64,000 bases of DNA, from the NCBI GenBank assembly GCA_016208235.1, contig JACQYN010000118.1:11891-75890 (forward strand), read 5' to 3'. The notes beneath the pieces are model-generated. The model searched no databases and was not told the DNA's origin. It saw only the letters and a list, made by a program, of their open reading frames with translations. Both the position numbers and the translations under genes were made by a program. The stretch is from Deltaproteobacteria bacterium (GTDB lineage: Bacteria > Desulfobacterota > Desulfobaccia > Desulfobaccales > 0-14-0-80-60-11). Of the stretch, positions 2,921 through 61,787 are shown one piece after another (position 1 is the stretch's first letter; every line of letters begins with the position of its first letter).

Positions 2921-5131
2921 ATGCCCAAAGAAACCACGGAAGTCACCCTCACCCTGGAAGGCATGCACTGCGCTTCCTGTGTGGCCCGGGTGGAAAGGGC
3001 CCTGAGCGGGGTGCCCGGGGTGGAGCAGGCCCTGGTCAACCTGGCCACCCGCCAGGCTAAGGTCAGGTACGACGCACAGCAGACCGCGGTGGAAAACTTG
3101 CAGGCCGTGGTCCATGATGCTGGCTATGAGGTTACCGGCTGGGCTCTGGAAGCCCCTCCACCCGTTTCTCCGGAGATCGAGGCCCAAAACCTTAAGCGCC
3201 GTTTTCTCCTGGCCCTGATCTTGAGCCTCCCCGTCTTTCTGGGGGCCATGGTGCCGCCTCTGCCGGGGTGGTTGGGCCTGAAGCCGGAGCCCCTGGCTTA
3301 TCTGCTCCTGATCTTCACCACCCCGGTGTTGTTCTATTCCGGCGCGCCTTTTTTCCGGGGCGCGCTGAGCGCAGCCCGCCACGCCGCGGCTAATATGGAT
3401 ACCCTGGTGGCCCTGGGGACCAGCGCCGCATACTTTTATTCCGCGTGGGTGACTTTTTGGCCCCAATCAGTGGTTGCTCCCGGCAAAAGCCCGGACCTCT
3501 ACTTCGACACCACGGCCATGATTATCACCTTCATCCTCCTGGGCCGCTGGCTGGAGGCCCGCACCCGGGGCCGGGCCTCCCAGGCCATCCGCCGCCTCTT
3601 CGCCCTGGCCCCGCCCAACGCCCGCATCCGCCGGGAAGGCCTGGAATTGGAGGTGCCCCTGGAGCAGGTGCTGGTGGGGGACTTGATGACCGTGCGCCCC
3701 GGAGAGAAGATCCCGGTGGACGGGGTGGTGGTGGAGGGCGCGTCCAGCGTGGACGAATCCATGCTCACCGGGGAGAGCGTGCCGGTGGCCAAGGAACCGG
3801 GCGCCGAAGTCTGGGGGGCCACCCTCAACCAGCGAGGGTTTCTGGTCTTTAAGGCCACCCGGGTGGGCCGGGACATGGTGCTCTCGCAGATCATCCGCCT
3901 GGTGGAAGAGGCCCAGACCAGTAAGGCCCCCATTGAACGCCTGGTGGACCGGGTGGCGGGGATTTTCGTCCCTGTGGTCATGGGCCTGGCCGGCCTCACC
4001 TTCCTGGGTTGGCTGGTCTGGGGCCCGGCCCCGGCTCTCACCCCGGCCCTGGTCAGCATGGTGGCGGTCCTTATCATCGCCTGCCCCTGCGCCATGGGCC
4101 TGGCCACCCCCACCGCGGTGATGGTGGGCTCCGGCCGGGGCGCGGAAATGGGCATCCTGCTGCGGGGCGGCGAACCCCTGGAGCGGGCCTACCGCCTCAC
4201 CGCGGTGGTCTTCGACAAGACCGGCACCCTCACTCAAGGCCGCCCCCAGGTCACGGACATCCTGGCCTGGGAAGGCTGGCCTGAAGACCAGGTCCTGGCC
4301 TGGGCCGCGGCCGTGGAAGAAAAATCGGAACATCCCCTGGCGGAGGCTGTAACCCACGCCGCGGCCCACCGGCAACTACCGCTGCCGCTGGTGGCGGAGT
4401 TTCAGGCCATTCCGGGGCTGGGAGTCAAGGCTAGAATTGAAGGGCAGGAAGTACTCCTGGGCAATCTCACCTTCCTTAATCGGGAAAATATTCTGGTTCA
4501 GGCCCTCACCCCCCACCAGGAGCGCTTGGCCCAGGAAGGCAAAACCACCATCTTCCTGGTGGCCGGGGGTAAACCGGTGGGGCTGCTGGCCGCCGCGGAT
4601 ACCCTGAAACCGGGAGCCAAGGCGGCTGTGGCCGCGATCCAGGCCATGAATCTGAAAGTTGTCCTCCTCAGCGGCGACAACCGCCTGGCCGTGGAGGCTG
4701 CAGCCCGCACCGTGGGCATCTCCGAAGTGCTGGCGGAAGTCCTTCCCGGGGACAAGGCCCGCAAGGTCGCAGAATTGCAAGCTGCCGGGGAGACCGTGGC
4801 CATGGTGGGAGACGGCATTAACGACGCCCCGGCCCTGGCCCAGGCCGATGTGGGCATAGCCCTGGGCACCGGCGCGGACGTGGCCGCGGAAGCCGCGGAC
4901 CTGACCCTCATCCGGGACGACCTGACCCTCATCCCTCAGGCCATTCACCTCTCCCGGAAAATGATGCGCATCATCCGCCAGAACCTCTTTTGGGCCTTCT
5001 GTTACAACGTGGTGGCCATCCCCGCGGCTTCCCTGGGGCTGCTCAACCCGGCCATCGCCGCCGCGGCCATGGCGATGAGTTCGGTGAGCGTGGTTACAAA
5101 TTCCCTGCGCCTCCGGCGTTTTCGAGGGTAG
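2921..5131 (+). CDS. copA: copper-translocating P1B-type ATPase
   Basis: N-terminal HMA motif [11 protein letters not shown] motif ([13 protein letters not shown]), DKTGTLT phosphorylation site, GDGINDAP hinge. 736 aa. Confidence 0.95.
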
Positions 5132-6490: not shown

Positions 6491-6650
6491 CCTGCGGGGG
6501 CAAGGGCCGTGGGGCGGGCCTCCGGGCCCGCCGGCGCCAACTTGGCCCCCCCGCTCATTTCCTGTCGCCCTTCCCGGTTTGAATCTCTCGCATCAATGAT
6601 TAACGTTCAATAACTGGGGAAAATAATCTTATACCAGGTGCCATGCAAGA

Positions 6651-6703
6651 GGTAGCACAGGCTTTCCAGCCTGTGCCGGCGCAGGCTAAAGCCTGCGGCT
6701 ACC
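6651..6703. repeat. double hairpin of the CACAGGC...GCCTGTG family
   Basis: GGTAGCACAGGCTTTCCAGCCTGTGCCGGCGCAGGCTAAAGCCTGCGGCTACC. Related hairpins at 14131-14152, 25407-25430, 52820-52843, 53038-53060 and 57888-57910. Confidence 0.9.
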
Positions 6704-6750: not shown

Positions 6751-7128
6751 ATGCGCATATTTCCTGTGATAATACTGGCCGTCCTCCTCTTGGCCGGTTG
6801 TTCCGTGGGCATGGCCCTGTACGGCCATTCCGAGCCGGATTTGCGAAACATCCAGGTGGGCAAGGATCGTAAAGAGGTGGAATCCTACCTGGGAAAGCCG
6901 GTGAAGACGAAAACCGAGGATTGGCGAACCATCGCCGTTTATAAATACCAGGTGGGCAATGAACCCGCGCCGGCCCGGGCGGGGATGCACGCCATCCTGG
7001 ACGTGGGCACCTTGGGCCTCTGGGAATTCATCGGCACCCCCATTGAACTGATCAAGGGGAGCACCCGACGGCTCACTGTTATCTATGGACCGGACAATAA
7101 GGTCGTGGAGATTAAGAAAGGCGGCTGA
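6751..7128 (+). CDS. small lipoprotein, unknown function
   Basis: Lipobox LLLAGC after a hydrophobic leader. 125 aa. No family recognised. Confidence 0.6.
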   Translation: MRIFPVIILAVLLLAGCSVGMALYGHSEPDLRNIQVGKDRKEVESYLGKPVKTKTEDWRTIAVYKYQVGNEPAPARAGMHAILDVGTLGLWEFIGTPIELIKGSTRRLTVIYGPDNKVVEIKKGG

Positions 7129-7137
7129 CTGTAAAAT

Positions 7138-7361
7138 ACGGTTTTCATTTTTTGGTTTTCAGTTTTCAATTAAAAAAAGTTGGACTATCCATGGTTATGG
7201 GCGGAGTCATCACTCTGCTTATCTGCTTTCCCCAACCCACCCATATAAGTCAGCCGGGGAATTCGGGGCTGCAGCGCCGACTTCTCCGGCTGCTAATCAA
7301 TTCAACATCTGATATCTCGATATTATTTAACCGAAAACCGAAAACCGAAAACTGAAAACTG
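7138..7361. repeat. ~225-bp element bounded by inverted (CGAAAAC)n arrays (MITE-like)
   Basis: Left arm acggttttcattttttggttttcagttttc (7138-7172). Right arm aaccgaaaaccgaaaaccgaaaactgaaaactg (7329-7361). Fills the spacer between two convergent genes. Confidence 0.85.
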
Positions 7362-7363
7362 TA

Positions 7364-8827
7364 TCATTCCCCCTCCACCAACAGCTTATAGAGGTTCAGG
7401 TAGGCGGACGCGGACCTTTCCCAGGAGAAGTCCTGGGACATGGCGTTTTCCACGAGACGGCGCCATTGCTTCTGATTCTTGTAAGCCTTCAGGGCCGCGT
7501 TGATGGCCGCCGCGAAGGCTTCCGGGGTGTAGTCGGTGAACAGGAAGCCGGTGCCCGAGCCTACGGCCGGGTCGGCCTGGGCCACGGTGTCGGCCAGGCC
7601 GCCGGTGGCCCGGACAATGGGAATGGTGCCGTATTTTAGGGAATACATCTGGTTGAGGCCGCAGGGCTCAAACCGGGAGGGCATGAGGAACATGTCCGCG
7701 CCGGCTTCCATGAGGTGAGCCAGGGCGTTGTCGAACGCGATCTTCACTCCCAGTTTGCCGGGGTATTTGGGGGCTTCCTGGGCCAGCCAGCGGTGGTATT
7801 TTTCCTCCCCGGTGCCCAGGATGACCACCATCAGGTCCTGGTCCAGGAGTTCCGGGAGCATCGCGGCCACCAGGTCGAAGCCTTTCTGGTCCGCCAGACG
7901 GGAGATCATGGCCAGGATGGGGGCCTTGGACAGCTTGGGGTCCAGATTGAAGGCCTCCATCAGCGCGGCCTTGTTCTTGGCCTTGCCCGCGAGGTTGCCC
8001 TTGCTGAAGGTGGCGGGGATGAGGCGATCGTTTTCCGGGCTCCAATCCTGATAATCCACCCCGTTCAAAATGCCGTGCAGGGCAGAGGCCCGGGCCCGCA
8101 GCAAGCCTTCCAGGCCGTAGCCGAACTCCGGGGTCTGAATCTCTTCGCTGTAGCCGACGCTGACGGTGGTGATGGCGTCGGCAAAGACGATCCCCCCTTT
8201 GAGCAGGCTGATCTGGTCGTAATATTCCAGGCCGTCAATACCGAACAGGGACCAGTCCAGGCCCAGAAGAGGAAATTTCTCTTTATAAAAAAGCCCCTGG
8301 TAGGCCAGATTATGAATGGTGAGCACGGTCTTGGCCCCGTTCAGAATTTCCGCCCCCTGCCATCGGTGGCGCAGGTAAACCGGAACCAAGGAAGACTGCC
8401 AGTCGTGGCAATGGATCACATCCGGCTGAAAGCCCAGGTTCTGGCAAACCGGCAGGATGGTGGAGCAGAAAAAAGAAAAGCGCTCCAGGTTGTCGAAATA
8501 ATCGCCTTTGGGCGTGCCGTAAAGCTGAGAGCGTTCAAAGAACTCATCCCGCTCCACGAAATAAAAGGGGTAATCGCCGGACTCGGGGGTCTTCACATCA
8601 AAGGCCAGCCCGGTTCCCCCCAAATGCCCTTCCAGGTTTTCCGCCACCGTGGTCATGGGAATCTTGCCCTGCTTGACCATGCCGTAATAAGGCATGAGGA
8701 CCCGGACGTCTGAGCCCAGGTCCTTCAGGGCGTTAGGCAGGGTGCCCACCACGTCGGCCAACCCCCCGGTCTTGGCAAAAGGCACCGCTTCCGAGGCAAC
8801 AAACAACACCCGCAAATTCCGCGCCAT
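7364..8827 (-). CDS. glgA: glycogen synthase
   Basis: 487 aa. N-terminal VLFVASEAVPFAKTGGLADVVGTLP motif and overall GT5 glycogen synthase pattern. AAGGAGG Shine-Dalgarno upstream. Confidence 0.95.
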   Translation of the reverse strand: MARNLRVLFVASEAVPFAKTGGLADVVGTLPNALKDLGSDVRVLMPYYGMVKQGKIPMTTVAENLEGHLGGTGLAFDVKTPESGDYPFYFVERDEFFERSQLYGTPKGDYFDNLERFSFFCSTILPVCQNLGFQPDVIHCHDWQSSLVPVYLRHRWQGAEILNGAKTVLTIHNLAYQGLFYKEKFPLLGLDWSLFGIDGLEYYDQISLLKGGIVFADAITTVSVGYSEEIQTPEFGYGLEGLLRARASALHGILNGVDYQDWSPENDRLIPATFSKGNLAGKAKNKAALMEAFNLDPKLSKAPILAMISRLADQKGFDLVAAMLPELLDQDLMVVILGTGEEKYHRWLAQEAPKYPGKLGVKIAFDNALAHLMEAGADMFLMPSRFEPCGLNQMYSLKYGTIPIVRATGGLADTVAQADPAVGSGTGFLFTDYTPEAFAAAINAALKAYKNQKQWRRLVENAMSQDFSWERSASAYLNLYKLLVEGE

Positions 8828-8842
8828 AGCCCCTCCTTAGGA

Positions 8843-8900
8843 CGGTTTTCAGTTTTCGGTTTTCGGTTTTCGGTTATAAATATATCGAATAATCGTATGG
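8843..8900. repeat. (GTTTTCG)n array plus ATCGA-box flank in the glgA leader
   Basis: acggttttcagttttcggttttcggttttcggtt ataaatatatcgaataatcg. Inverted relative to 7329-7361. Confidence 0.9.
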
Positions 8901-8964: not shown

Positions 8965-8996
8965 CCCTGGCCCCTGACCCCTGACCCCTGGCCCCT
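8965..8996. repeat. 7-nt tandem array (CCCTGGC/CCCTGAC)
   Basis: Same family as 4-38. Overlaps the stop codon (8995-8997) of the NYN gene. A complementary-orientation copy lies at 57751-57771. Confidence 0.9.
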
Positions 8997-12063: not shown

Positions 12064-12140
12064 TCTCACGCAAAGACGCAAAGGCGCTAAAGATTTAATA
12101 TAATTATTGCGTCTTTGGGCCTTTGCGTCTTTGCGTGAGA
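12064..12140. repeat. hairpin with 8-nt periodic arms (CGCAAAGA)n
   Basis: tctcacgcaaagacgcaaaggcgc ... gcgtctttgggcctttgcgtctttgcgtgaga, between the S-component stop and the ATPase ORF. Confidence 0.9.
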
Positions 12141-15102: not shown

Positions 15103-15373
15103 AGCTGTCAGCTATCAGCTATCAGCTGTCAGCTGTCAGCTTAATTGAAGAACTATTAGAGATTGGAGCTAAATCGAGTTCAGCTGAAGTTTTGGGGTCT
15201 GCCTTAATTTTTGATTTTATACCAAGTCGCAAACAAAAAACGCAGTATCGTAGGGGCGCACCCGTGTGTGCGCCCGAGTCCGGGGCGGACACATGGGTCC
15301 GCCCCTACAAGAAAATTGTCTTTTGTTTGCGACTTGGTATTAAAGCTGATGGCTGAAAGCTGATAGCTGAAAG
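15103..15373. repeat. composite nested palindrome, type II
   Basis: Outer (CAGCTRT)n arms at 15103-15141 / 15344-15373, enclosing the element at 15219-15340. Confidence 0.9.
15219..15340. mobile_element. 122-bp MITE-like palindromic insertion (ATACCAAG...CTTGGTAT)
   Basis: 20-bp perfect terminal inverted repeats (ataccaagtcgcaaacaaaa / ttttgtttgcgacttggtat) around a GTAGGGGCG...CGCCCCTAC double hairpin. An uninterrupted version of the flanks exists at 14201-14240. Confidence 0.65.
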
Positions 15374-20502: not shown

Positions 20503-20575
20503 TCTCACGCAAAGACGCAAAGACACAAAGAAAATAAATGCTTTGCGCCTTTGCGCCTTGGCGTCTTTGCGTGAG
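20503..20575. repeat. hairpin with 8-nt periodic arms (CGCAAAGA)n, second copy
   Basis: tctcacgcaaagacgcaaagacacaaag ... ctttgcgcctttgcgccttggcgtctttgcgtgag. Abuts the aconitase stop (20576-78) and lies 19 nt before the ALDH start. Confidence 0.9.
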
Positions 20576-22538: not shown

Positions 22539-22725
22539 AGTGGTCAGTGGCCAGTGGTCAGTTAGAGAGCTCTGAAAAAGTCTTGTCTGTCATCCTGAGC
22601 GAAGCGAAAGATCTCGTATTTGAGAGATTCTTCGGTCGCTCCGCTCCCTCAGAATGACATAAAAGACCAATTTTACAGAGGTCTCAGTCTTTTTTCTGGC
22701 CACTGGCCACTGACCACTGACCACT
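22539..22725. repeat. composite nested palindrome, copy I-b
   Basis: (CAGTGGY)n arms at 22539-22562 / 22696-22725, degenerate GAGAGCTCTGAAAAAG layer, and core GTCATCCTGA...TCAGAATGAC (22589-22658). The right arm overlaps the 3' end of CDS 22684..25395. Confidence 0.9.
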
Positions 22726-25481: not shown

Positions 25482-26318
25482 TTAAATCGGTTCTATATTC
25501 AATTTATATTTTGTTTCATCAATTATGGCCTGATATAAAACTATTTTTGTAGGATATCTTGAAACCCATTCCATTATCTTTTGCTTATTTTCTGGAGAAA
25601 TTAAAGCACCAAAAATTACGCCGGTTAATATCTCAGGTCTGAAATGTCGTATTCCTGGGCCTCCTTCCCGTTCAGTTTTTATTACCCTCCATTCTTCCTC
25701 ATATTCCCAATGATTTGATTTTGTTAAAAGAGCCTTCTTATATTCTGTTGGTTGATCTGATGCCATCACAAATGCCATCACATTTACAATGGGACGTTCC
25801 TCGCTATAAATAACTTTTAGTGCCTGTCCAAATAATATCATTCCACCAATCCTGGCATCAAGGATTGGGTCAAATTCTATACACAATCCCTTATGCCCAC
25901 TTGAATAATGAGACCACATCAGTATATCATCTTTCTTCTCTGAAAGACAATAAAGACCTGTTGTTTCTAAAAACCTTTCATATGCATTATCAATATGTTC
26001 TGGTCTATCCCTTAATATTCTATTATAATCTCTCATTAGTGCTTTACGAGCCTTTCTGTTATTACATGGCATCATATTCCGCACCCTTGCTCTAATAAAC
26101 TGCTGTCTTTTAAGTCCACTGTTATAAACCGTAAGTTTCGGTCGACATTCAAAGGGGTCGTTAAAATCTATTGGCTTTGGTAAGAAGATTTCTCTTTTTG
26201 TAAATATTCCCTCAAGTTCTTGAGATTCCATTGTACGGTATCTATATAGTTTCCTGATTTGACATAATTCAGGAGTTTTCAACAATTCCTTGATTTGATC
26301 TTCTCTTGTTGTGCTCAT
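25482..26318 (-). CDS. DUF2971-family protein
   Basis: 278 aa in a clearly low-GC segment. DFNDPFE and MWSHYSSGHKGLCIEF motifs characteristic of DUF2971 as I recall it. Confidence 0.7.
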   Translation of the reverse strand: MSTTREDQIKELLKTPELCQIRKLYRYRTMESQELEGIFTKREIFLPKPIDFNDPFECRPKLTVYNSGLKRQQFIRARVRNMMPCNNRKARKALMRDYNRILRDRPEHIDNAYERFLETTGLYCLSEKKDDILMWSHYSSGHKGLCIEFDPILDARIGGMILFGQALKVIYSEERPIVNVMAFVMASDQPTEYKKALLTKSNHWEYEEEWRVIKTEREGGPGIRHFRPEILTGVIFGALISPENKQKIMEWVSRYPTKIVLYQAIIDETKYKLNIEPI

Positions 26319-27315: not shown

Positions 27316-27524
27316 TGGATCTCCGGTGGTTGGGGGAGGAGGCTAAAAAGTTGTCAGTGGTCAGTGGTGCCGTCCACGTTTTTTCGTTTATAACTGGCAA
27401 CTGACTACTGTTTTACCCCCTCTCCACGCTTCCCATCTTTAATACTTACGATCCCTTGTGGAACCGATATGATATTGTTCATATATTAGAAGAAACATGG
27501 GAAACTGGCAAGGAGGAGGGTAAG

Positions 27525-43029: not shown

Positions 43030-43153
43030 CCAGTGGTCAGTGGCCAGTGATCAGTTTTTAGTTTTCGGTTTTGGGTTTTGGGTTTTGGGTTTTATCTTAC
43101 AAGGATTAAATGCCTATACTTACCTAATCACTGGCCACTGACCACTGACCACT
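43030..43153. repeat. (CAGTGGY)n inverted arms enclosing a (GTTTTSG)n array, ftsW-murG spacer
   Basis: ccagtggtcagtggccagtgatcagt (43030-55), tttttagttttcggttttgggttttgggttttgggtttt (43056-94), tcactggccactgaccactgaccact (43129-53). Confidence 0.9.
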
Positions 43154-44353: not shown

Positions 44354-44900
44354 TACGCCACCCCCACCCTAACCCTCCCCCCTCAAGGGGGAGGGGATAG
44401 ATCGCTGGATTTTTGGGGGGTTAGTAGATATGCATGACCTTGTCAGTCTTTCCAGAAATCTGAGAAAAAATCAGACTGATGCGGAAAATCTATTATGGCG
44501 GCATCTGCGGGGAAAACAATTAGAAGGATTGAGATTTAGGAGGCAACACCCCATCGGACGATACATTGTGGATTTCGTATGTCTCGAAAAACGATTGGTT
44601 CTGGAAATTGACGGCGGCCAGCATGGGATGGAAAAAGAAAAGATTAAAGATGATGAACGGGATCATTGGTTAAGGACGGAAGGTTACCAGGTATTAAGAT
44701 TTTGGAATAACGACGTCTTAACAAACCTGGAAGGCGTCATGGAAACGATACGATTAACTGCCCTCCCTAATTCTAACTGATAGATAAAGGGGCCATAAAA
44801 AAGAAAACTGCCAATAAAAGAAATGCCCCATAATACCACAGATGTCTTTGCTTTTATCCCCTCCCCCTTGAGGGGGGAGGGTTAGGGTGGGGGTGGCGTA
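44354..44900. mobile_element. 547-bp cassette: DUF559 gene bounded by ~46-bp perfect inverted repeats of the GC-rich palindrome family
   Basis: Left TACGCCACCCCCACCCTAACCCTCCCCCCTCAAGGGGGAGGGGATA (44354-44399) equals the reverse complement of 44855-44900 by hand comparison. The interior is low GC. Confidence 0.7.
44430..44780 (+). CDS. DUF559 (Vsr-like endonuclease fold) protein
   Basis: 116 aa, low GC. LRKNQTDAENLLWRHLR..FRRQHPIGRYIVDF..LVLEIDGGQH..D..RD.WL...GY.VLRFWNNDV matches the DUF559 pattern. Confidence 0.85.
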   Translation: MHDLVSLSRNLRKNQTDAENLLWRHLRGKQLEGLRFRRQHPIGRYIVDFVCLEKRLVLEIDGGQHGMEKEKIKDDERDHWLRTEGYQVLRFWNNDVLTNLEGVMETIRLTALPNSN

Positions 44901-45374
44901 TTGAAGGTTGAGAAAAGTTCTCGGCATTCCAAAATCACAGGTAACTTCGCAGAAGGTCTTATTCTATATTGGCTTTCAAAGTATGGTTTCGAGCGTGCTT
45001 TGGTAGACCATGTCGGTGTAGACATCATAGCACGGAACCCGCTGACCCAAGAACTTATGGGTATATCGGTGAAGTCAAGATCAAGGAGTACCGGCAAAGA
45101 AGGACAATATGTGCATATACCAAACGATCATTTCGAAAAAATCGAAGCGGCATGTCGTGCCTTCGCCTGTGTTCCCTACATCGCAGTGGTGGTCGATGAA
45201 AGCAGTGATATCCATGCCTTTTTAACGCCTATGGCCCATTTTTTAACTTTGTTCCCTCGTCGGGAAACGTCCGCGGGTTGGAAAATGAACCGGACGTGGC
45301 TTGATCATTATGAAAAAGATCCGGAGATAAAGTACTTTCATTTCAGCCATAGGACTATTAATTGGTGGAAGTAG
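44901..45374 (+). CDS. hypothetical protein, possible PD-(D/E)xK nuclease fold (DUF4365-like)
   Basis: 157 aa, low GC, TTG start abutting the right inverted repeat. GNFAEGLILYWLSKYGF..VDHVGVDIIAR..GISVKSRS resembles the D...(D/E)xK core of restriction-endonuclease-like folds. Weak call. Confidence 0.45.
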   Translation: MKVEKSSRHSKITGNFAEGLILYWLSKYGFERALVDHVGVDIIARNPLTQELMGISVKSRSRSTGKEGQYVHIPNDHFEKIEAACRAFACVPYIAVVVDESSDIHAFLTPMAHFLTLFPRRETSAGWKMNRTWLDHYEKDPEIKYFHFSHRTINWWK

Positions 45375-48932: not shown

Positions 48933-49416
48933 TTTTCAGAAAAGTGGCTAACCTCAATTACTCAGCAACAATTGCTTGAAATCGGCTTAACTATAGGCCC
49001 AAAACCATAATCTAAAATTTAAAGAATTTCATTTTAGATTTCAGCAGATAGCTTTTTTTGCACTCTTTTTTTCTGGACCCCTATGAAAATCGATGTTATT
49101 TCCAGGAAACGGGAGATTGGCCACAGACCAGGCGCTTTTCCCCCCACATGGCCCAGAGCCGGGGATAACTTACTTTAACTAATCGTTAAATTAATTTAAT
49201 CATTATGTCTGTAAAATTTCTGAAAACGTCAACGTTGGAGGGCTTCAAGGGAGCCCCGGGGCAGAGCCGGGGTAATCTAAATTTGGCTTCACCCCCTTTG
49301 ACCGGGCTGGAGGGGGGAGGCTAATATATTCCTAACTAGAATGCGCGTCGTGCCCTTCCCGTATGGCCTTGTCCGCGGGGAAATGCCCGGTAATATGCTG
49401 CAAGGGGGTGGTGGGT

Positions 49417-50619
49417 ATGAAAATACAATTAGTCACCAATGAATTATCGGCTAAAATCAAGGTGTTAGGAGTCGGCGGAGCCGGCGGCAATGCCATCAAC
49501 GACATGATCGCCTCCCAGATGGCGGGGGTGGATTTCATGGCCGCCAATACCGATTCCCAGGCCCTGGAACGCAGCCTGGCCTCGGTTAAAATCCATTTGG
49601 GTCCCACGGTGACCCGGGGGTTGGGAGCCGGAGGCGATCCGGAGATGGGCCGCAATGCCACCCTGGAGGAAAGCGAACGCATTAAGCAGGTCCTCCAAGG
49701 CGCGGACATGGTGTTCATTGCCGCGGGCATGGGCGGCGGCACCGGCACCGGCGGGGCGCCGGTGATCGCCGAACTCAGCCGGGAGTTGGGCGCGCTCACC
49801 GTGGCGGTGGTGAGCAAGCCCTTCGACTTCGAAGGCAAGATGAAAAAACGTCTGGCCGATTCCGGCATCGAAGAGCTGCGCAAGGTGGTGGACACCATCA
49901 TCACCATCCCCAACGATCAGCTCTTCAAACTGAGTTCCAAAAACTCCCGCATCAAAGACGTCTTCGCCATGGCCAACGAAGTTCTGGGCTTTGCCGTGCG
50001 GGGCATCTCCGATCTGATCATGGTGCCCGGCTTCGTCAACCTGGACTTCGCGGACGTGCGCACCATCATGCGGGAACGGGGTATGGCCCTCATGGGCACC
50101 GGCATCTCCGGCGGCGCCAACCGCGCCTGCGAGGCCGCCCAGAAAGCCATCTCCAGCCCTCTGCTGGAGGACATCTCCATCCGAGGGGCCCGGGGGATTC
50201 TCATCAACATCACCTCCACCCCGGACATCTCCATGGACGAACTGAAGGAAATTTGCGGCATCATCCAGGAAGAAGCGGACGAAGAAGCCATCATCAAATG
50301 GGGCCTGGTTTACGACGAGAGCCTGGCCGAAGAGATCCGGGTCACAGTCATCGCCACCGGTCTGGGCAAGCGCGCAGAAGCTGAAAGAGTCATCTGGTCC
50401 CCGCCGGTCACTACCCAGGCCGAGATGGAAGACCTGGAAATTCCCACCATCCTACGGAAACCCACGGAAATGCAGGGCATGGCCGCGGAAGGGCACCAGC
50501 CTGGAAGGCCTTCCCCCAACCTGGGGGTGGTGGCCGCCAAGAAGTACATCGTTCATCCCGACCTCCAATACGAGGAAAACGAACTGGACACCCCTCCTTT
50601 TTTGAGAAGGGCTGATTAA
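49417..50619 (+). CDS. ftsZ: cell division GTPase FtsZ
   Basis: Start trimmed to ATG 49417. GVGGAGGNAIN, tubulin signature GGGTGTGGAPVIA, NDQL, and C-terminal conserved peptide DTPPFLRR. Confidence 0.95.
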   Translation: MKIQLVTNELSAKIKVLGVGGAGGNAINDMIASQMAGVDFMAANTDSQALERSLASVKIHLGPTVTRGLGAGGDPEMGRNATLEESERIKQVLQGADMVFIAAGMGGGTGTGGAPVIAELSRELGALTVAVVSKPFDFEGKMKKRLADSGIEELRKVVDTIITIPNDQLFKLSSKNSRIKDVFAMANEVLGFAVRGISDLIMVPGFVNLDFADVRTIMRERGMALMGTGISGGANRACEAAQKAISSPLLEDISIRGARGILINITSTPDISMDELKEICGIIQEEADEEAIIKWGLVYDESLAEEIRVTVIATGLGKRAEAERVIWSPPVTTQAEMEDLEIPTILRKPTEMQGMAAEGHQPGRPSPNLGVVAAKKYIVHPDLQYEENELDTPPFLRRAD

Positions 50620-50622
50620 AAT

Positions 50623-50648
50623 ACGGTTTTCAGTTTTCGGTTTTCGGT
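50623..50648. repeat. (GTTTTCG)n array abutting the ftsZ stop
   Basis: gattaaaat-acggttttcagttttcggttttcggt. The ftsZ TAA lies inside the conserved TTAAAATAC flank. Confidence 0.9.
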
Positions 50649-50649
50649 G

Positions 50650-50682
50650 GGGGCGTGATTTTGTCACGCCCCTTGCTTTTTT
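50650..50682 (+). terminator. rho-independent terminator after ftsZ
   Basis: GGGGCGTGA-TTTTG-TCACGCCCC stem-loop followed by TTGCTTTTTT. Confidence 0.75.
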
Positions 50683-50720
50683 AAGGCAAATCATTAAGTT
50701 ACAATATCAAACTATTGCTT

Positions 50721-50830
50721 ATACCAAGAAATTGTAGGGGCGGACCCGCGTGTCCGCCCTTGGGTGGGCGCACACACATGGGTGCGCCCCTACAACAGAT
50801 AATTCTAGTTTTTTGACGGCAACTTGGTAT
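50721..50830. mobile_element. second copy of the ATACCAAG...CTTGGTAT element, flanked by a 19-bp direct repeat
   Basis: Core tgtaggggcggacccgcgtgtccgccc..gggcgcacacacatgggtgcgcccctaca. Flanks tacaatatcaaactattgc (50700-18) and tacaatatcaaactactgc (50831-49). Confidence 0.6.
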
Positions 50831-51044
50831 TACAATATCAAACTACTGCCAGTTAGGAGGTTGCGCCCTGCGCACCAGTTAAGTTGCCGACTTTTCATAA
50901 TTTAAGGGTGAGTCGAAGGCTCATGTTCAAATGCTTGGGCAAAATGGATGCGCGTGGCATAATAAATAATGGAATTGTGGGGACGGTTTAAAACCGCCCC
51001 TCTTTGGTTCGCAAATCGCAGGATTATCCTCAAAAAGCTATTCC

Positions 51045-52795: not shown

Positions 52796-53176
52796 GTGGG
52801 GGAGGGGGCTAAGGGCCGGTAGCACAGGCGTCTCGCCTGTGGACCTTAGCCCCCTTCCCCTATACCCGCCACAGGCGCTAACTTAAACAATATTTGTCAT
52901 TCTGAACGGAGCGAAGCGGAGTGAAGAATCTCTAATTTTCCTACGAAATGAGAGATTCTTCGCTGCGCTCAGAATGACAAAAAGCCTTATGTTAACGCTT
53001 ATGCCCACACCCCCTCCCCCAATCCCATAAGCTTTGGTGGCACAGGCTTCCAGCCTGTGCGGTCAACTCGCTGGGTCTCCTATCTCATGCTGATTTACCT
53101 GCAAACGACATGTTCTGTAGGGGCGAACCTTGTGTTCGCCCACGATTCCCCAGGCGAACACAAGGTTCGCCCCTAC
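52796..53176. repeat. cluster of at least four different palindrome families in one spacer
   Basis: 52796-52858 (GGGGAGGGGGCTAAGG..CACAGGCG..), 52896-52978 (GTCATTCTGA core), 53038-53060 (CACAGGC hairpin), 53118-53176 (GTAGGGGCGAAC...GTTCGCCCCTAC). Confidence 0.9.
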
Positions 53177-55970: not shown

Positions 55971-56160
55971 CAGGCACTCTCCTTTGGGATGAAATTTATC
56001 TTAATCGAAATAATATCGGACGTTATCCAATTTTCCATTAAGGGTCAATTAAAAGGCCTGATTAAATTGATGTTCGAAACATCCAATAATTGCTGATAAA
56101 ATTGATGGAAGGATAAAATGTAAGCGGACACTGCCCGCCAGAATCTCTTTTTTTTTTCAC

Positions 56161-56192
56161 GGAAAACGGAAAACAGAAAACGGGTATTTAAA
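56161..56192. repeat. (GGAAAAC)n array plus GGGTATTTAAA flank forming the leader of the pterin-binding gene
   Basis: ggaaaacggaaaacagaaaacgggtatttaaa followed directly by ATG 56193. Compare with the copA leader. Confidence 0.85.
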
Positions 56193-56954
56193 ATGCTCCT
56201 GGCCGCGGATAATTTGCAGATCTTTAACCCGGTGGTGGCCGCGGCTTTGGAAAAACAAGACCCCCGGCCGCTCCAGGATTTGGCCCGGCGCTGCCGGGAG
56301 GCCGGGGCCGCCATGTTGGACATTAATCCCGGCTTTCTCAGCAAGCGCCACCAGGAGCGCATGGCCTTCATGGTGGAAGCGGTGCAGGAGACGGTGGACC
56401 TGCCCTTGATCCTGGACAGCCCTGACGCCGCGGTCCTGGCTAAGGGCCTGGCCGCCTGTCGCAGTAAACCCACTCTCAACGCCCTGACCCTGGAACCCAA
56501 AAAACTCGAAGAGATCCTCCCCGTGGCCGCGGCCCAGCAGACCGACCTGGTGCTGCTGCTCCTGGATGAACGCTCTTTTCCGGCCCCCACCCTGGAAGGC
56601 AAAATCGCTCTAGCCGTGGAGCTGCGGGAGCGGGCCCTGGCCGCGGGCCTGGCTGCGGAGCAGTTGATTTTCGACCCGGTGCTCCCCAACCTCAGTTGGC
56701 CCGACGCCTGGGAGCAGGTGCGGGAGTGTATCAAAACCGTGCGTCTGCTGGCCGCAGGCGCCATCTTTCCCGAACCCGCGCGCACCATGGCGGGGCTGTC
56801 CAATCTGCGCAGCCACCTGCGCCGGGTTTATCCCCTGGAGGTGGAGGTAACCTGCCTGGGTATGCTGGCGGGCGCGGGCCTTAACATCTTCCTGGCGGAC
56901 GTGCTGCAGCCGGGGTTCAGGGAAGGGATCAAACTTATTCGGGAATTAAGTTGA
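56193..56954 (+). CDS. pterin-binding (DHPS/MeTr-like) domain protein
   Basis: 253 aa TIM-barrel-like pattern (AGAAMLDINPG, LILDSPD, TLNALT) resembling methyltetrahydrofolate:corrinoid methyltransferase / dihydropteroate synthase-like proteins. Confidence 0.65.
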   Translation: MLLAADNLQIFNPVVAAALEKQDPRPLQDLARRCREAGAAMLDINPGFLSKRHQERMAFMVEAVQETVDLPLILDSPDAAVLAKGLAACRSKPTLNALTLEPKKLEEILPVAAAQQTDLVLLLLDERSFPAPTLEGKIALAVELRERALAAGLAAEQLIFDPVLPNLSWPDAWEQVRECIKTVRLLAAGAIFPEPARTMAGLSNLRSHLRRVYPLEVEVTCLGMLAGAGLNIFLADVLQPGFREGIKLIRELS

Positions 56955-57168: not shown

Positions 57169-57631
57169 TCAAACCACCTCGGCCCCCAGGACCCGCTGCA
57201 TGTATTTCAGGGCGAACGCGTGGCCTTCGGGGTCGAAGTCGGCCACGCCCTCCCGGTAAACCAGGCGGGGGATGTCCCGGTCGAAGAGTTCCTTCACGGT
57301 TTCCATGACGCAAATGGAAGTGCACACCCCCACGATCTCCACCCGCTCCACCTGCTCCCGTTTAAGGACGGCGTCCATCTCGGTGTTATGGAAACAGCTA
57401 TAGCTGGTCTTTTCCACCCGGTAATCCCCGGGCAGCACCTGGAGTTCGGGAATGATCTCCGCGCCCCGGGTGCCCGACATAAATCACCACCCCGCCTGCG
57501 GCCCGGGTTTCCTCGATCTTCCGGGCCACAAAGGGGATGATCTCCCGGGCTTCAGCCCCCAGGTAAAGGGTCCCCTGGGGCTCCATGAAATCCCGGAGCA
57601 TGTCCGCCACGATCAAGGCCTTTTTCCCCAT
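57169..57631 (-). pseudogene. isochorismatase/nicotinamidase-family cysteine hydrolase, frameshifted with internal deletion
   Basis: Two overlapping ORFs in different frames: 57398..57631 (MGKKALIVADMLRDF...GGVVIYV) and 57169..57480 (..GTRGAEIIPEL..VEKTSYSCF..VGVCTSICV). The junction at ~57470-57490 lacks the ~20 aa normally found between the beta-strand VVIYV and GT.GAEI. Confidence 0.6.
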
Positions 57632-57650: not shown

Positions 57651-57674
57651 GTTTTTGGTTTTTGGTTTTTCGTT
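57651..57674. repeat. (GTTTTTG)n array in the leader of the isochorismatase-family pseudogene
   Basis: gtttttggtttttggtttttcgtt, 20 nt upstream (minus strand) of the start at 57631. Confidence 0.8.
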
Positions 57675-61448: not shown

Positions 61449-61787
61449 AAGCTGTCAGCTATCATCTGTCAGCTTAAAAGAATATGGAGTTTGATTGTAA
61501 ATTGAGACCTCTGCGAAAGCCTACTCAGCTGTCATTCTGAGGGAGCGGAGCGACCGAAGAATCTCGTTTTTGGCAGTACAGCTTTTCCAGATGGTGCCGA
61601 TGATTCCACCCAGATTGGAAATCCTGGGCGCTAAAATACGAGATTCTTCACTCCGCTTCGCTCCGTTCAGAATGACATTTTAAAGACTTTCGCAGAGGTC
61701 TCAAATTGAGATAAACCAGGATTCCGATCTTAATTTCAAATCTTGCTTTAAAAAAAGCTGAAAGCTGACTGCTGAAAGCTGTAAGCT
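61449..61787. repeat. composite nested palindrome, copy I-c (largest)
   Basis: (CAGCTRT)n arms 61449-61475 / 61755-61787. GAGACCTCTGCGAAAG 61504-19 pairs with CTTTCGCAGAGGTCTC 61687-702. The core GTCATTCTGA...CAGAATGAC at 61531-61676 has an enlarged loop. Confidence 0.9.

Follow-up and report, generated by a model that had tools for sequence, protein, structure and literature searches.

Heptamer arrays beside glgA, copA and ftsZ as the probable stretchable ends of small TNA-inserting mobile elements in a deltaproteobacterial contig

Background

[quoted passage not shown] The BrickBuilt MITE of Porphyromonas gingivalis, which is always intergenic, carries a variable-copy internal tandem repeat (PMC4596501). 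Tandem heptamers of the STRR class occupy many intergenic sites with variable copy number (Mazel 1990; Mrazek 2007), and heptameric repeats of several families, over-represented in intergenic DNA, are often arranged as inverted pairs and stay between the same genes in relatives, though they vary extensively in length and sequence (Rehm 2015, PMC4692102). The TAACTGA repeats of marine Beggiatoaceae, Cyanobacteria and Bacteroidetes, tandem heptamers mostly of 2 to 6 units, are overwhelmingly intergenic and lie in forward orientation a few nucleotides before starts without a ribosome-binding site, a minority being directed toward stops; (TGAAAAC)n is the single-base variant AAACTGA listed in the same study (MacGregor 2015, PMC4679880). 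We report here on the (YGAAAAC)n arrays, eight in number, of a 64,000-nucleotide stretch of contig JACQYN010000118.1 from a Deltaproteobacteria bacterium (the whole stretch is called the window below). The (CGAAAAC)n arrays found there at glgA, copA and ftsZ are probably the stretchable ends of small non-coding mobile elements that insert at TNA triplets, rather than a control device dedicated to glgA.

The element compares with these systems as follows. Like the Correia elements, it is present as dozens of intergenic copies beside genes, its A/T-rich core holds a putative IHF-consensus box, and it could form a long hairpin when transcribed. Unlike them, it is of unrelated sequence, its target duplication is 3 bp (TNA) instead of TA, its host belongs to the Thermodesulfobacteriota, and its inverted termini are short, with a heptamer that expands into a microsatellite. 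A variable-copy internal tandem repeat is shared with BrickBuilt, whose unit of 23 nt makes up the element body, whereas the unit here is 7 nt, sits 4 nt from the terminus and lies within the inverted repeat. With the TAACTGA repeats the arrays share the forward orientation before starts without a Shine-Dalgarno (SD) sequence, seen in the window at copA and at a pterin-binding gene. The units differ, however: AAACCGA (CGAAAAC, in the window) and AAACTGA (TGAAAAC, elsewhere) are two and one bases off, and whereas no mobile-element context or transmission mechanism was given for TAACTGA (PMC4679880), a subset of the present arrays lies inside a MITE with target duplications. The likeness to the STRR class lies in tandem heptamers at many intergenic sites with variable copy number; the host is neither a cyanobacterium nor a xanthomonad, the units are other than STRR1-3, and slippage is supplemented by evidence of transposition. 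The literature searched, the coverage of which is incomplete, contained no account of this family and none that connects heptamer arrays with MITE termini. The array-bearing element constitutes a new family within an already known type of element.

Results

Arrays at gene boundaries

Arrays were listed with Tandem Repeats Finder and gene identities were taken from Pfam. Period-7 rows were obtained at 2880-2910, 7141-7168 (with a period-14 row at 7140-7166), 7329-7359, 8843-8875, 43061-43093, 50624-50648, 56159-56183 and 57651-57674. When the sequence was re-read, every array coordinate given by an earlier model-generated reading of the letters (the sequence-only reading) was confirmed. The motif CGAAAACCGAAAAC, with at most one mismatch allowed, has 12 matches in the window against 0.03 expected.

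According to the sequence-only reading, all eight copies lie within about 20 nt of a start or stop codon. A curated gene map puts the nearest boundary at 2, 4, 9, 9, 10, 15, 19 and 25 nt from the array (n = 8), which upholds the figure for seven arrays and leaves one, the degenerate array at 43054-43093, outside it. The near boundary lies on the 3' side of the GAAAAC strand in every case, and on the far side the next gene is 107 to 396 nt away. Adjacency and polarity taken together depart from random placement and orientation within the same spacers (Fisher combined P = 3.6e-5).

The two flanks that had been proposed as conserved are so in part. For the ATCGATA-like box, TCGATA is present in three of the eight copies and a TTGACA variant in a fourth, and the remaining copies lack it; for the GTATT(T)AAAA flank, GTATTW follows four arrays and is missing from the other four. 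BLAST of the flanks between window copies gave no homology beyond the arrays, and a box of about 17 nt is the only sequence common to them outside the arrays. Two motifs typical of the element ends described below are more frequent than expected in the window: GAAAACSGTAT (3 occurrences against 0.02) and TTATACCARK (3 against 0.14).

A dispersed family with target duplications

In Desulfobacterota-like loci (loci outside the window carry the prefix L), the left flank of many arrays is conserved over about 75 nt, and 11 array-bearing loci align over about 120 nt with a mean column identity of 68%. The alignment has the structure TATACCA..TTTC..TTTCAA.TGCAACAAAC..TAACTTATTGATA..TTTTAACC-(GAAAACC)n-GGTATTA. 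A full copy measures 102 to 116 nt and consists, between two TNA triplets, of TACC(A/G)-TTTC..TTTCAA, an AT-rich arm with the TAACTTATTGATA box (TTGATA), TTTTAACC, the array (GAAAACC)3-5 and GGTA. With a profile of the left arm without the array, at least 16 copies were detected; they are spread over at least 12 contigs and differ in gene context. In some of these matches a G+C-rich hairpin replaces the array, and L125, from a relative with 92% FtsZ identity, holds one of the copies. The ends form terminal inverted repeats, TACC(A/G)TTTTC... and ...GAAAAC(C/G)GGTA, of about 10 bp plus degenerate heptamer units, and are short and imperfect. One or two GTTTTC units, inverted and degenerate, are found at the left end; the heptamer therefore belongs to the terminal inverted repeat, and the right array is its expansion.

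The flanking trinucleotides are identical in 12 of 14 full copies (TTA in eight, TAA in three, TCA in one; permutation P = 8.5e-5). No pair of flanking triplets is reverse-complementary, which identifies them as direct repeats and not as an extension of the inverted repeat. L125 carries an exact insertion of 109 nt, made up of a 106-nt element and one TAA; the corresponding TAA is unoccupied in the sister genomes L126 and L127. A target duplication together with a filled and an empty site is what transposition leaves behind when a TNA target of 3 bp is duplicated. Some transposases of the IS5 family and of the Harbinger type typically produce such duplications. Its size (MITEs are smaller than about 300-500 bp), copy number, inverted termini, target duplication and empty site all mark the array-bearing family as a MITE. 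In L147 and L102 the terminal TTA of the element doubles as the stop codon of the neighbouring gene.

The TNA duplications and the orthologous empty site support one of the two explanations offered in the sequence-only reading, a target preference for gene boundaries. We read the GTATT(T)AAAA flank as the element terminus with its target triplet and an A-rich context, and the ATCGATA box as the internal TTGATA box of the element.

A structured RNA was considered as well and rejected: Rfam 15 gave no match in the window at gathering scores and none in a full-length copy at E <= 1, and no consensus pairs were seen across seven full copies.

Copies in the window

The best copy lies in the leader of copA, a heavy-metal P-type ATPase gene (2921-5131; Pfam). 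It spans 2852-2917 on the plus strand, with the box at 2852-2879, the array at 2880-2910, GGTA at 2911-2914 and the triplet TTA at 2915-2917, so that GGTA-TTA-AAA-ATG forms the junction with the gene. The box model matches at 2852-2885 (E = 0.007, best in the window), and the copy aligns with full-length copies; its right end GGTA-TTA is present and its left end is not recognisable. Some 100 nt before copA, at 2777-2804, there is a conserved promoter-like site, TTTGCA-16-TATTAT; it precedes the array, which would place the array in the 5' untranslated region (UTR). A dyad CCCAAGATGATTATTATTGGG in the same region (2780-2815), kept in L121-L123, may be the operator of a metal regulator. The right flank (GGTATTA / GGTATAAT) was also considered as the -10 box of leaderless mRNAs. 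This was rejected because it is only 3 nt from the ATG; the promoter-like site farther upstream, and the occurrence of the same flank against stop codons, also speak against it.

The pterin-binding gene (56193-56954; pterin-binding domain by Pfam, CdhD-like) has a leader at 56159-56192 on the plus strand that reads (GGAAAAC)3 and then GGGTATTTAAA, directly before the ATG at 56193 and without an SD sequence. As had been stated, neither copA (gaaaacggtattaaaaATG) nor this gene (gaaaacgggtatttaaaATG) has an SD-like tetramer; both start codons are conserved in orthologues.

At ftsZ (49363-50619; Pfam) the copy is on the 3' side. It occupies 50620-50648 on the minus strand and consists of the terminus plus (GGTTTTC)3.6, the ftsZ stop (TAA, 50617-50619) lying in the array flank as described earlier. 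Downstream of it follows a separate, canonical G+C-rich terminator hairpin with a T-run (about 50649-50685). The arrays themselves, here and in the glgA 3' spacer, do not qualify as intrinsic (Rho-independent) terminators.

glgA (7364-8827, minus strand; starch/glycogen synthase domains by Pfam) is indeed bracketed by inverted arrays. Its leader reads (AACCGAAAAC)n-GTCCTAAGGAGGGGCT-ATG; the leader array (8843-8876, minus strand) is separated from the ATG (8827) by 15 nt and is followed directly by an AAGGAGG SD sequence, and the 3' array begins 2 nt past the stop codon. In our reading, the leader array would be the right end of an old, diverged copy reaching to about 8955, an extent read by eye from similarity to the left arm. 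The two arrays show an exact inverted identity of 31 nt, down to the order of the unit variants. A public contig of 1,534 nt encoding this GlgA ends inside both arrays, presumably because the repeated 31-mer disrupts short-read assembly.

The spacer between glgA and the convergent open reading frame (ORF) ORF6751 (6751-7128) is filled by a candidate palindromic element of 227 nt, to which no strand is assigned (7137-7363). It reads TAC-GGTTTTC...GAAAAC-TGTA and extends from just past the stop of ORF6751 (TGA at 7126-7128, a TAA at 7132-7134) to the stop of glgA (TCA at 7364-7366). The left arm is an imperfect (GAAAACN) array on the minus strand (7138-7172), which starts 9 nt after the ORF6751 stop and has a GAAAACCGTAT terminus at 7136-7146. 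The right arm is the glgA 3' array, (CGAAAAC)4.7 on the plus strand (7329-7361); TGTA at 7360-7363 abuts the glgA stop, giving the junction TGTA-TCA, and TCGATA stands at 7317 within the second-best box-model match of the window (7309-7334, E = 0.4). The two best matches of the model both lie directly left of arrays. The arms are 156 nt apart, the arm-to-arm duplex alone is predicted at -39.3 kcal/mol, and for 7137-7363 a single hairpin closed by both arrays is predicted, with energies of -87.2 and -88.5 kcal/mol (z = -8.8 and -6.8, respectively). At its ends the sequence is similar to the family termini TACC...GGTA. In our reading, the arrays at 7138 and 7329 are the arms of a single element. 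A search of 7100-7400 gave nothing resembling a terminator.

Apart from the copA copy, the window copies are diverged or fragmentary. A (CAAAAAC)3 array (57651-57674, minus strand) with a TTGACA box upstream lies 19 nt upstream of the start (57631) of an isochorismatase-like gene. That gene (57169-57631, minus strand) is split into two overlapping frames of 77 and 103 aa, by a frameshift or a sequencing error; its orthologue in L128 is intact (173 aa). A degenerate (CAAAACC/GAAAACN) array at 43054-43093, minus strand, in the ftsW-murG spacer lies between inverted (CAGTGGT)n arrays (43031-43055 and 43129-43153), so that another heptamer array sits between it and the ftsW stop. It has no element-like terminus, relatives hold other heptamer families at this position, and its membership of the family is doubtful. 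An isolated fragment resembling a left terminus, TTA-TACCAGG..., is present at 6629-6655 on the plus strand.

Turnover at orthologous sites

Eight related loci were obtained via close GlgA and FtsZ homologues. The position of the glgA leader array is kept in every related locus, with changing content: one unit in L121, GGAAAAC units with a CGTA-TTA end in L122, and in L123 and L124 a degenerate array that makes up the entire 41-nt spacer between an NYN gene and glgA. Since it fills this spacer, the array must be transcribed there if both genes are co-transcribed. The 3' glgA array and the array at 7138 are absent from all four related glgA loci, which hold other hairpins at this place. Likewise, the full copA array is found in the window only, relatives having 0 to 1.5 units at the homologous site, and the isochorismatase leader array is confined to the window, L128 having a GGAGG SD sequence instead. 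At ftsZ a trailer array is present in four of five related genomes, with differing units (GTTTTCR, GTTTTTC, GTTTTTA x7 or GTTTTCY), upstream of a terminator hairpin that is conserved in relatives. The pterin-gene leader array is found in all three relatives that cover the site, with one to three units and in each case without an SD sequence.

Units are thus homogenised within an array and different between genomes, and their number at orthologous sites ranges from one to seven. Some array sites are therefore old and turn over in place, and others are recent gains.

The same heptamer in other genomes

One genome per species was scanned for GAAAACYGAAAACYGAAAAC, giving at least 119 stretches; Planctomycetota, Acidobacteriota, Bacteroidota, Desulfobacterota, Verrucomicrobiota, Poribacteria and other groups are represented among the matches listed. 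The neighbouring gene was taken as the longest open frame on each side, and boundaries were counted from -5 to 25 nt from the array. As genes were called by open-frame length only, single cases are fallible, and the left/right comparison is internally controlled. Metagenomes probed with (GAAAACC)4 served as a replicate (110 arrays).

For the 102 genomic arrays among the matches listed, starts were found on the 3' side of the GAAAAC strand in 30 cases against 5 on the 5' side (P = 2e-5), and stops in 18 against 6 (P = 0.02). The metagenomic arrays gave 28 against 3 for starts and 15 against 2 for stops. Near and far boundaries therefore number 48 and 11 in genomes (again among the matches listed) and 43 and 5 in metagenomes (combined P = 1.4e-8). 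An SD-like tetramer between array and start was present in 6 of 30 genomic cases (among the matches listed) and 1 of 28 metagenomic cases. Some 210 independent arrays across phyla, from the matches listed and the metagenomes, thus have the same polarity and mostly precede starts without an SD sequence. When two arrays lay within 300 nt of each other, the order was a GTTTTC arm and then a GAAAAC arm in 29 pairs and the reverse in none (P = 3.7e-9). Period 7 dominates the perfect tandem repeats of these loci, which were selected by the heptamer pattern (147 against at most 7 for any other period).

In the other phyla, an all-against-all BLAST of the flanks recovered mostly partner arrays and no conserved left arm. 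The arrays of these phyla may be either further element families of the same design or the product of slippage and selection, the latter acting on an unstructured A-rich leader of the kind put forward for the TAACTGA repeats (PMC4679880).

A (GAAAACC)4 array also appears to lie inside a coding region in L109 (at about 447), L141, L157 and L194, and this recurs in several metagenome contigs; it would read MTIPKTENRKPKTGTLDDLDRAILNE... as an N-terminal extension of an apparent Lrp/AsnC-type regulator.

Sister elements and other repeats of the window

The window has a G+C content of 59% and holds a dcw cluster, radical-SAM genes and the CdhD-like pterin gene. Relatives have the same dcw cluster, with ftsA, and the closest GlgA and FtsZ proteins are labelled Desulfobaccales or Thermodesulfobacteriota by their sources. 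Given this gene content and these names, a cyanobacterium with STRR repeats, suggested by the many heptamer families, was rejected as the host.

Two array-less sister MITEs with the termini TACCAAG...CTTGGTA lie on the plus strand of the window. The first (15217-15342, element 15220-15339) has inverted ends of about 22 bp and a G+C-rich hairpin core, and is flanked by TTA duplications at 15217-15219 and 15340-15342. The second (50719-50832, element 50722-50829, 108 nt), also with TTA duplications, lies in the spacer between ftsZ and a radical-SAM gene. Two intact sister MITEs with the same termini imply that such transposition has occurred in this lineage. The second is flanked by a 20-nt direct repeat TTACAATATCAAACTAYTGC (50682-50718 and 50830-50852), which may be either a tandem duplication that preceded the insertion or a feature of the insertion itself. 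A near-perfect palindrome of 66 nt (GTAGGGGCGAACCTTGTGTTCGCC...GGCGAACACAAGGTTCGCCCCTAC) at 53116-53181 matches L086 in both orientations, and hairpins similar to it, GTAGGGGCG...CGCCCCTAC, make up the cores of the sister MITEs.

A dispersed G+C-rich hairpin repeat (GGGGGAGGGGGC-TAA-GGGCC-GGTAGCACAGGC..GCCTGTGC...) is present at 52797-52859, 53036-53065 and 6652-6700. It matches loci from other Deltaproteobacteria metagenome-assembled genomes at 85 to 96% identity, and is also present in L125-L127 near the insertion site of the element; the TAA into which the L125 MITE inserted belongs to one such repeat.

Other arrays of 7- and 8-mers in the window also lie near gene ends, often as inverted pairs. 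At least five further heptamer families are present (CTGGCCC, CCCTGAC, AGTGGTC/CAGTGGT, AGCTGTC and AAAGCTG). Besides the (CAGTGGT)n pair at 43031-43055 and 43129-43153, their arrays are found at 4-34, 8965-8996, 22539-22562 with 22696-22725, 27349-27368, 15103-15141 with 15342-15373, and 61754-61787; several form inverted pairs and several touch stop codons. The same spacers in relatives hold different heptamer families. Octamer arrays (ACGCAAAG)n and (CTTTGCGT)n form adjacent inverted pairs, and hence hairpins of tandem 8-mers, at 12068-12136 and 20507-20571; the same arrays are found in relatives, in L125 and L127 upstream of a radical-SAM gene.

Two regions stand out by their codon composition. 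Between murG and murC in the dcw cluster (44430-45374), two ORFs have a low G+C content at third codon positions (GC3 0.42-0.46, against 0.7-0.8 elsewhere); different, unrelated genes occupy this position in L125, L126 and L128, which looks like an insertion hotspot. A 278-aa ORF at 25482-26318 on the minus strand (GC3 0.26, against about 0.75 typically) is probably foreign DNA.

Discussion

The observations at glgA, copA and ftsZ could be accounted for as follows. A transposase acting in trans would insert the element at a TNA triplet and duplicate it, and replication slippage would then expand, contract and homogenise the heptamer. Insertions inside genes would be lost. In a genome of 59% G+C, the usable TNA triplets outside genes would largely be stop codons and the A/T-rich bases before starts, and, with the array 4 nt from the element end, arrays would come to lie 2 to 25 nt from a start or stop. 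Because of this spacing, only the outward, A-rich 3' side adjoins the flanking DNA, hence the polarity; and if both arms are expanded, the arrangement must be a GTTTTC arm and then a GAAAAC arm. With the 3' end of the A-rich strand facing the gene, leaders would read (GAAAACY)n and trailers (RGUUUUC)n. The glgA and copA leader arrays would be older, diverged copies. As to the other explanation of the sequence-only reading, a role in translation, mRNA stability or termination, leader arrays are predicted to be single-stranded; effects on expression might consist in an unstructured A-rich leader that tolerates SD-independent initiation and, on the 3' side, in a long hairpin.

Several observations weigh against this account. 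In the window, copA is the sole copy that significantly matches the family model; the glgA 5', ftsZ and pterin-gene copies were assigned from array and terminus alone, and no heptamer-bearing copy has an intact target duplication. The triplets flanking the 227-nt element differ: one border has TAA(AA), the opposite one TCA. The inverted termini of the family are short, and no matching termini 0.6 to 3.5 kb apart, as expected of an autonomous partner, were found in the 1.8 Mb examined, a small sample of the genomes concerned. The ftsZ, pterin-gene and glgA leader arrays persist across genomes at about 90% protein identity, and this persistence could reflect functional selection rather than a neutral remnant. 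Finally, arrays that lack element-like ends have the polarity as well (48 against 13 and 33 against 5), and the other phyla have palindromic pairs but neither a conserved arm nor a duplication; the mobility of this one family is therefore not the whole explanation.

A rival view is that the arrays are microsatellites of the STRR or TAACTGA type, arisen in place and kept by selection, the A-rich (GAAAACY)n leader being a landing site for SD-independent ribosomes and the U-rich form serving 3' UTRs; the mobile element would merely carry such an array, or have arisen from one. We consider this rather unlikely. It would account for the polarity where element-like ends are missing, for the excess of starts 1 to 25 nt downstream of arrays (30 against 5 among the matches listed, and 28 against 3), and for the absence of an SD-like tetramer in 24 of those 30 and 27 of those 28 cases. 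It also agrees with the predicted single-strandedness of the leader arrays, with the fact that the leader arrays of the pterin gene and glgA and the trailer array of ftsZ are retained in spacers that otherwise diverge, and with the published TAACTGA repeats, likewise oriented to starts without a ribosome-binding site (PMC4679880). However, one function would have to be assumed for leaders and another, unrelated one for trailers; the outward arms of one element explain both. Nor does the array track the absence of an SD sequence: among orthologues no consistent relation was found between the two, glgA having both and copA being SD-less with or without an array. The copA, glgA 3' and isochorismatase arrays are moreover lineage-specific gains.

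The element or its array might instead be a platform for proteins, with IHF at the box and cold-shock or S1-type proteins on the heptamer-periodic RNA, and so define a dispersed regulon comparable to the IHF sites of Correia elements. We regard this as very unlikely. The IHF consensus WATCAANNNNTTR appears, in our own reading, to be matched by the reverse complement of the TAACTTATTGATA box in 8 of 14 full copies; the window copies have TCGATA and not TTGATA. A functional IHF site does exist in Correia elements (PMC10969869), and candidate proteins have been proposed for heptamer repeats (PMC4679880), but we noticed no common function among the neighbours copA, glgA, ftsZ and the pterin gene.

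Turning to glgA itself, the sequence-only reading had suggested that the two ends of its mRNA could pair over about 30 nt. Such pairing would close the transcript into a circle and thereby regulate how stable it is or how it is translated. An exact complementarity of 31 nt does exist (predicted duplex of -52.8 kcal/mol), but the pairing is not favoured and appears highly improbable as a device, since the 3' array is missing from all four related glgA loci. The alternative that the same reading had named, pairing of the 3' array with 7138-7172, is the better one: this partner is only 156 nt away and gives a predicted local hairpin of -87 to -88.5 kcal/mol. Contact across 1.5 kb of translated mRNA would in any case be unlikely, and the common 31-mer with its similar 17-nt flank looks like copies of one element. 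An on/off switch by inversion of the gene can be given next to no credence: inverted repeats of about 50 bp (31 bp exact) do enclose exactly the SD sequence, coding sequence and stop of glgA, and inversion of Correia elements is on record (PMC10969869), but so short a repeat is ill suited to RecA-dependent recombination, and we noticed nothing like a gene for a site-specific recombinase beside glgA. A 23-nt junction probe had 0 matches in metagenomes, a result that is uninformative since the collection does not contain this organism.

Conclusions

If the arrays are the stretchable ends of TNA-inserting elements, no bespoke regulatory device is needed to explain why glgA is bracketed. For annotation of these genomes, the rule would be that much of the spacer adjacent to starts and stops consists of TNA-inserting MITEs and their decayed, slippage-expanded ends, which also break short-read assemblies. 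The family provides a concrete link between a mobile element and the class of heptamer arrays known since the STRR and TAACTGA repeats were described. Orientation follows a strict rule, which holds for 29 pairs with no exception and for about 90 boundaries against 16 (among the matches listed and in the metagenomes).

A wider generalisation is tentative, and we hold it to be improbable as it stands: heptamer arrays at SD-less starts and at stops in many phyla (TAACTGA, AAACTGA/AAACCGA, perhaps part of the STRR class) would be the outward, slippage-prone arms of palindromic mobile elements, of which the A-rich form would have been co-opted as a portable ribosome-loading leader with a strength dependent on copy number. 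If this were true, the co-opted arms would be a stand-in for the Shine-Dalgarno sequence that is both mobile and expandable. And if A-rich leaders do influence translation from SD-less starts, the number of units would be a heritable, fast-mutating setting of gene expression.

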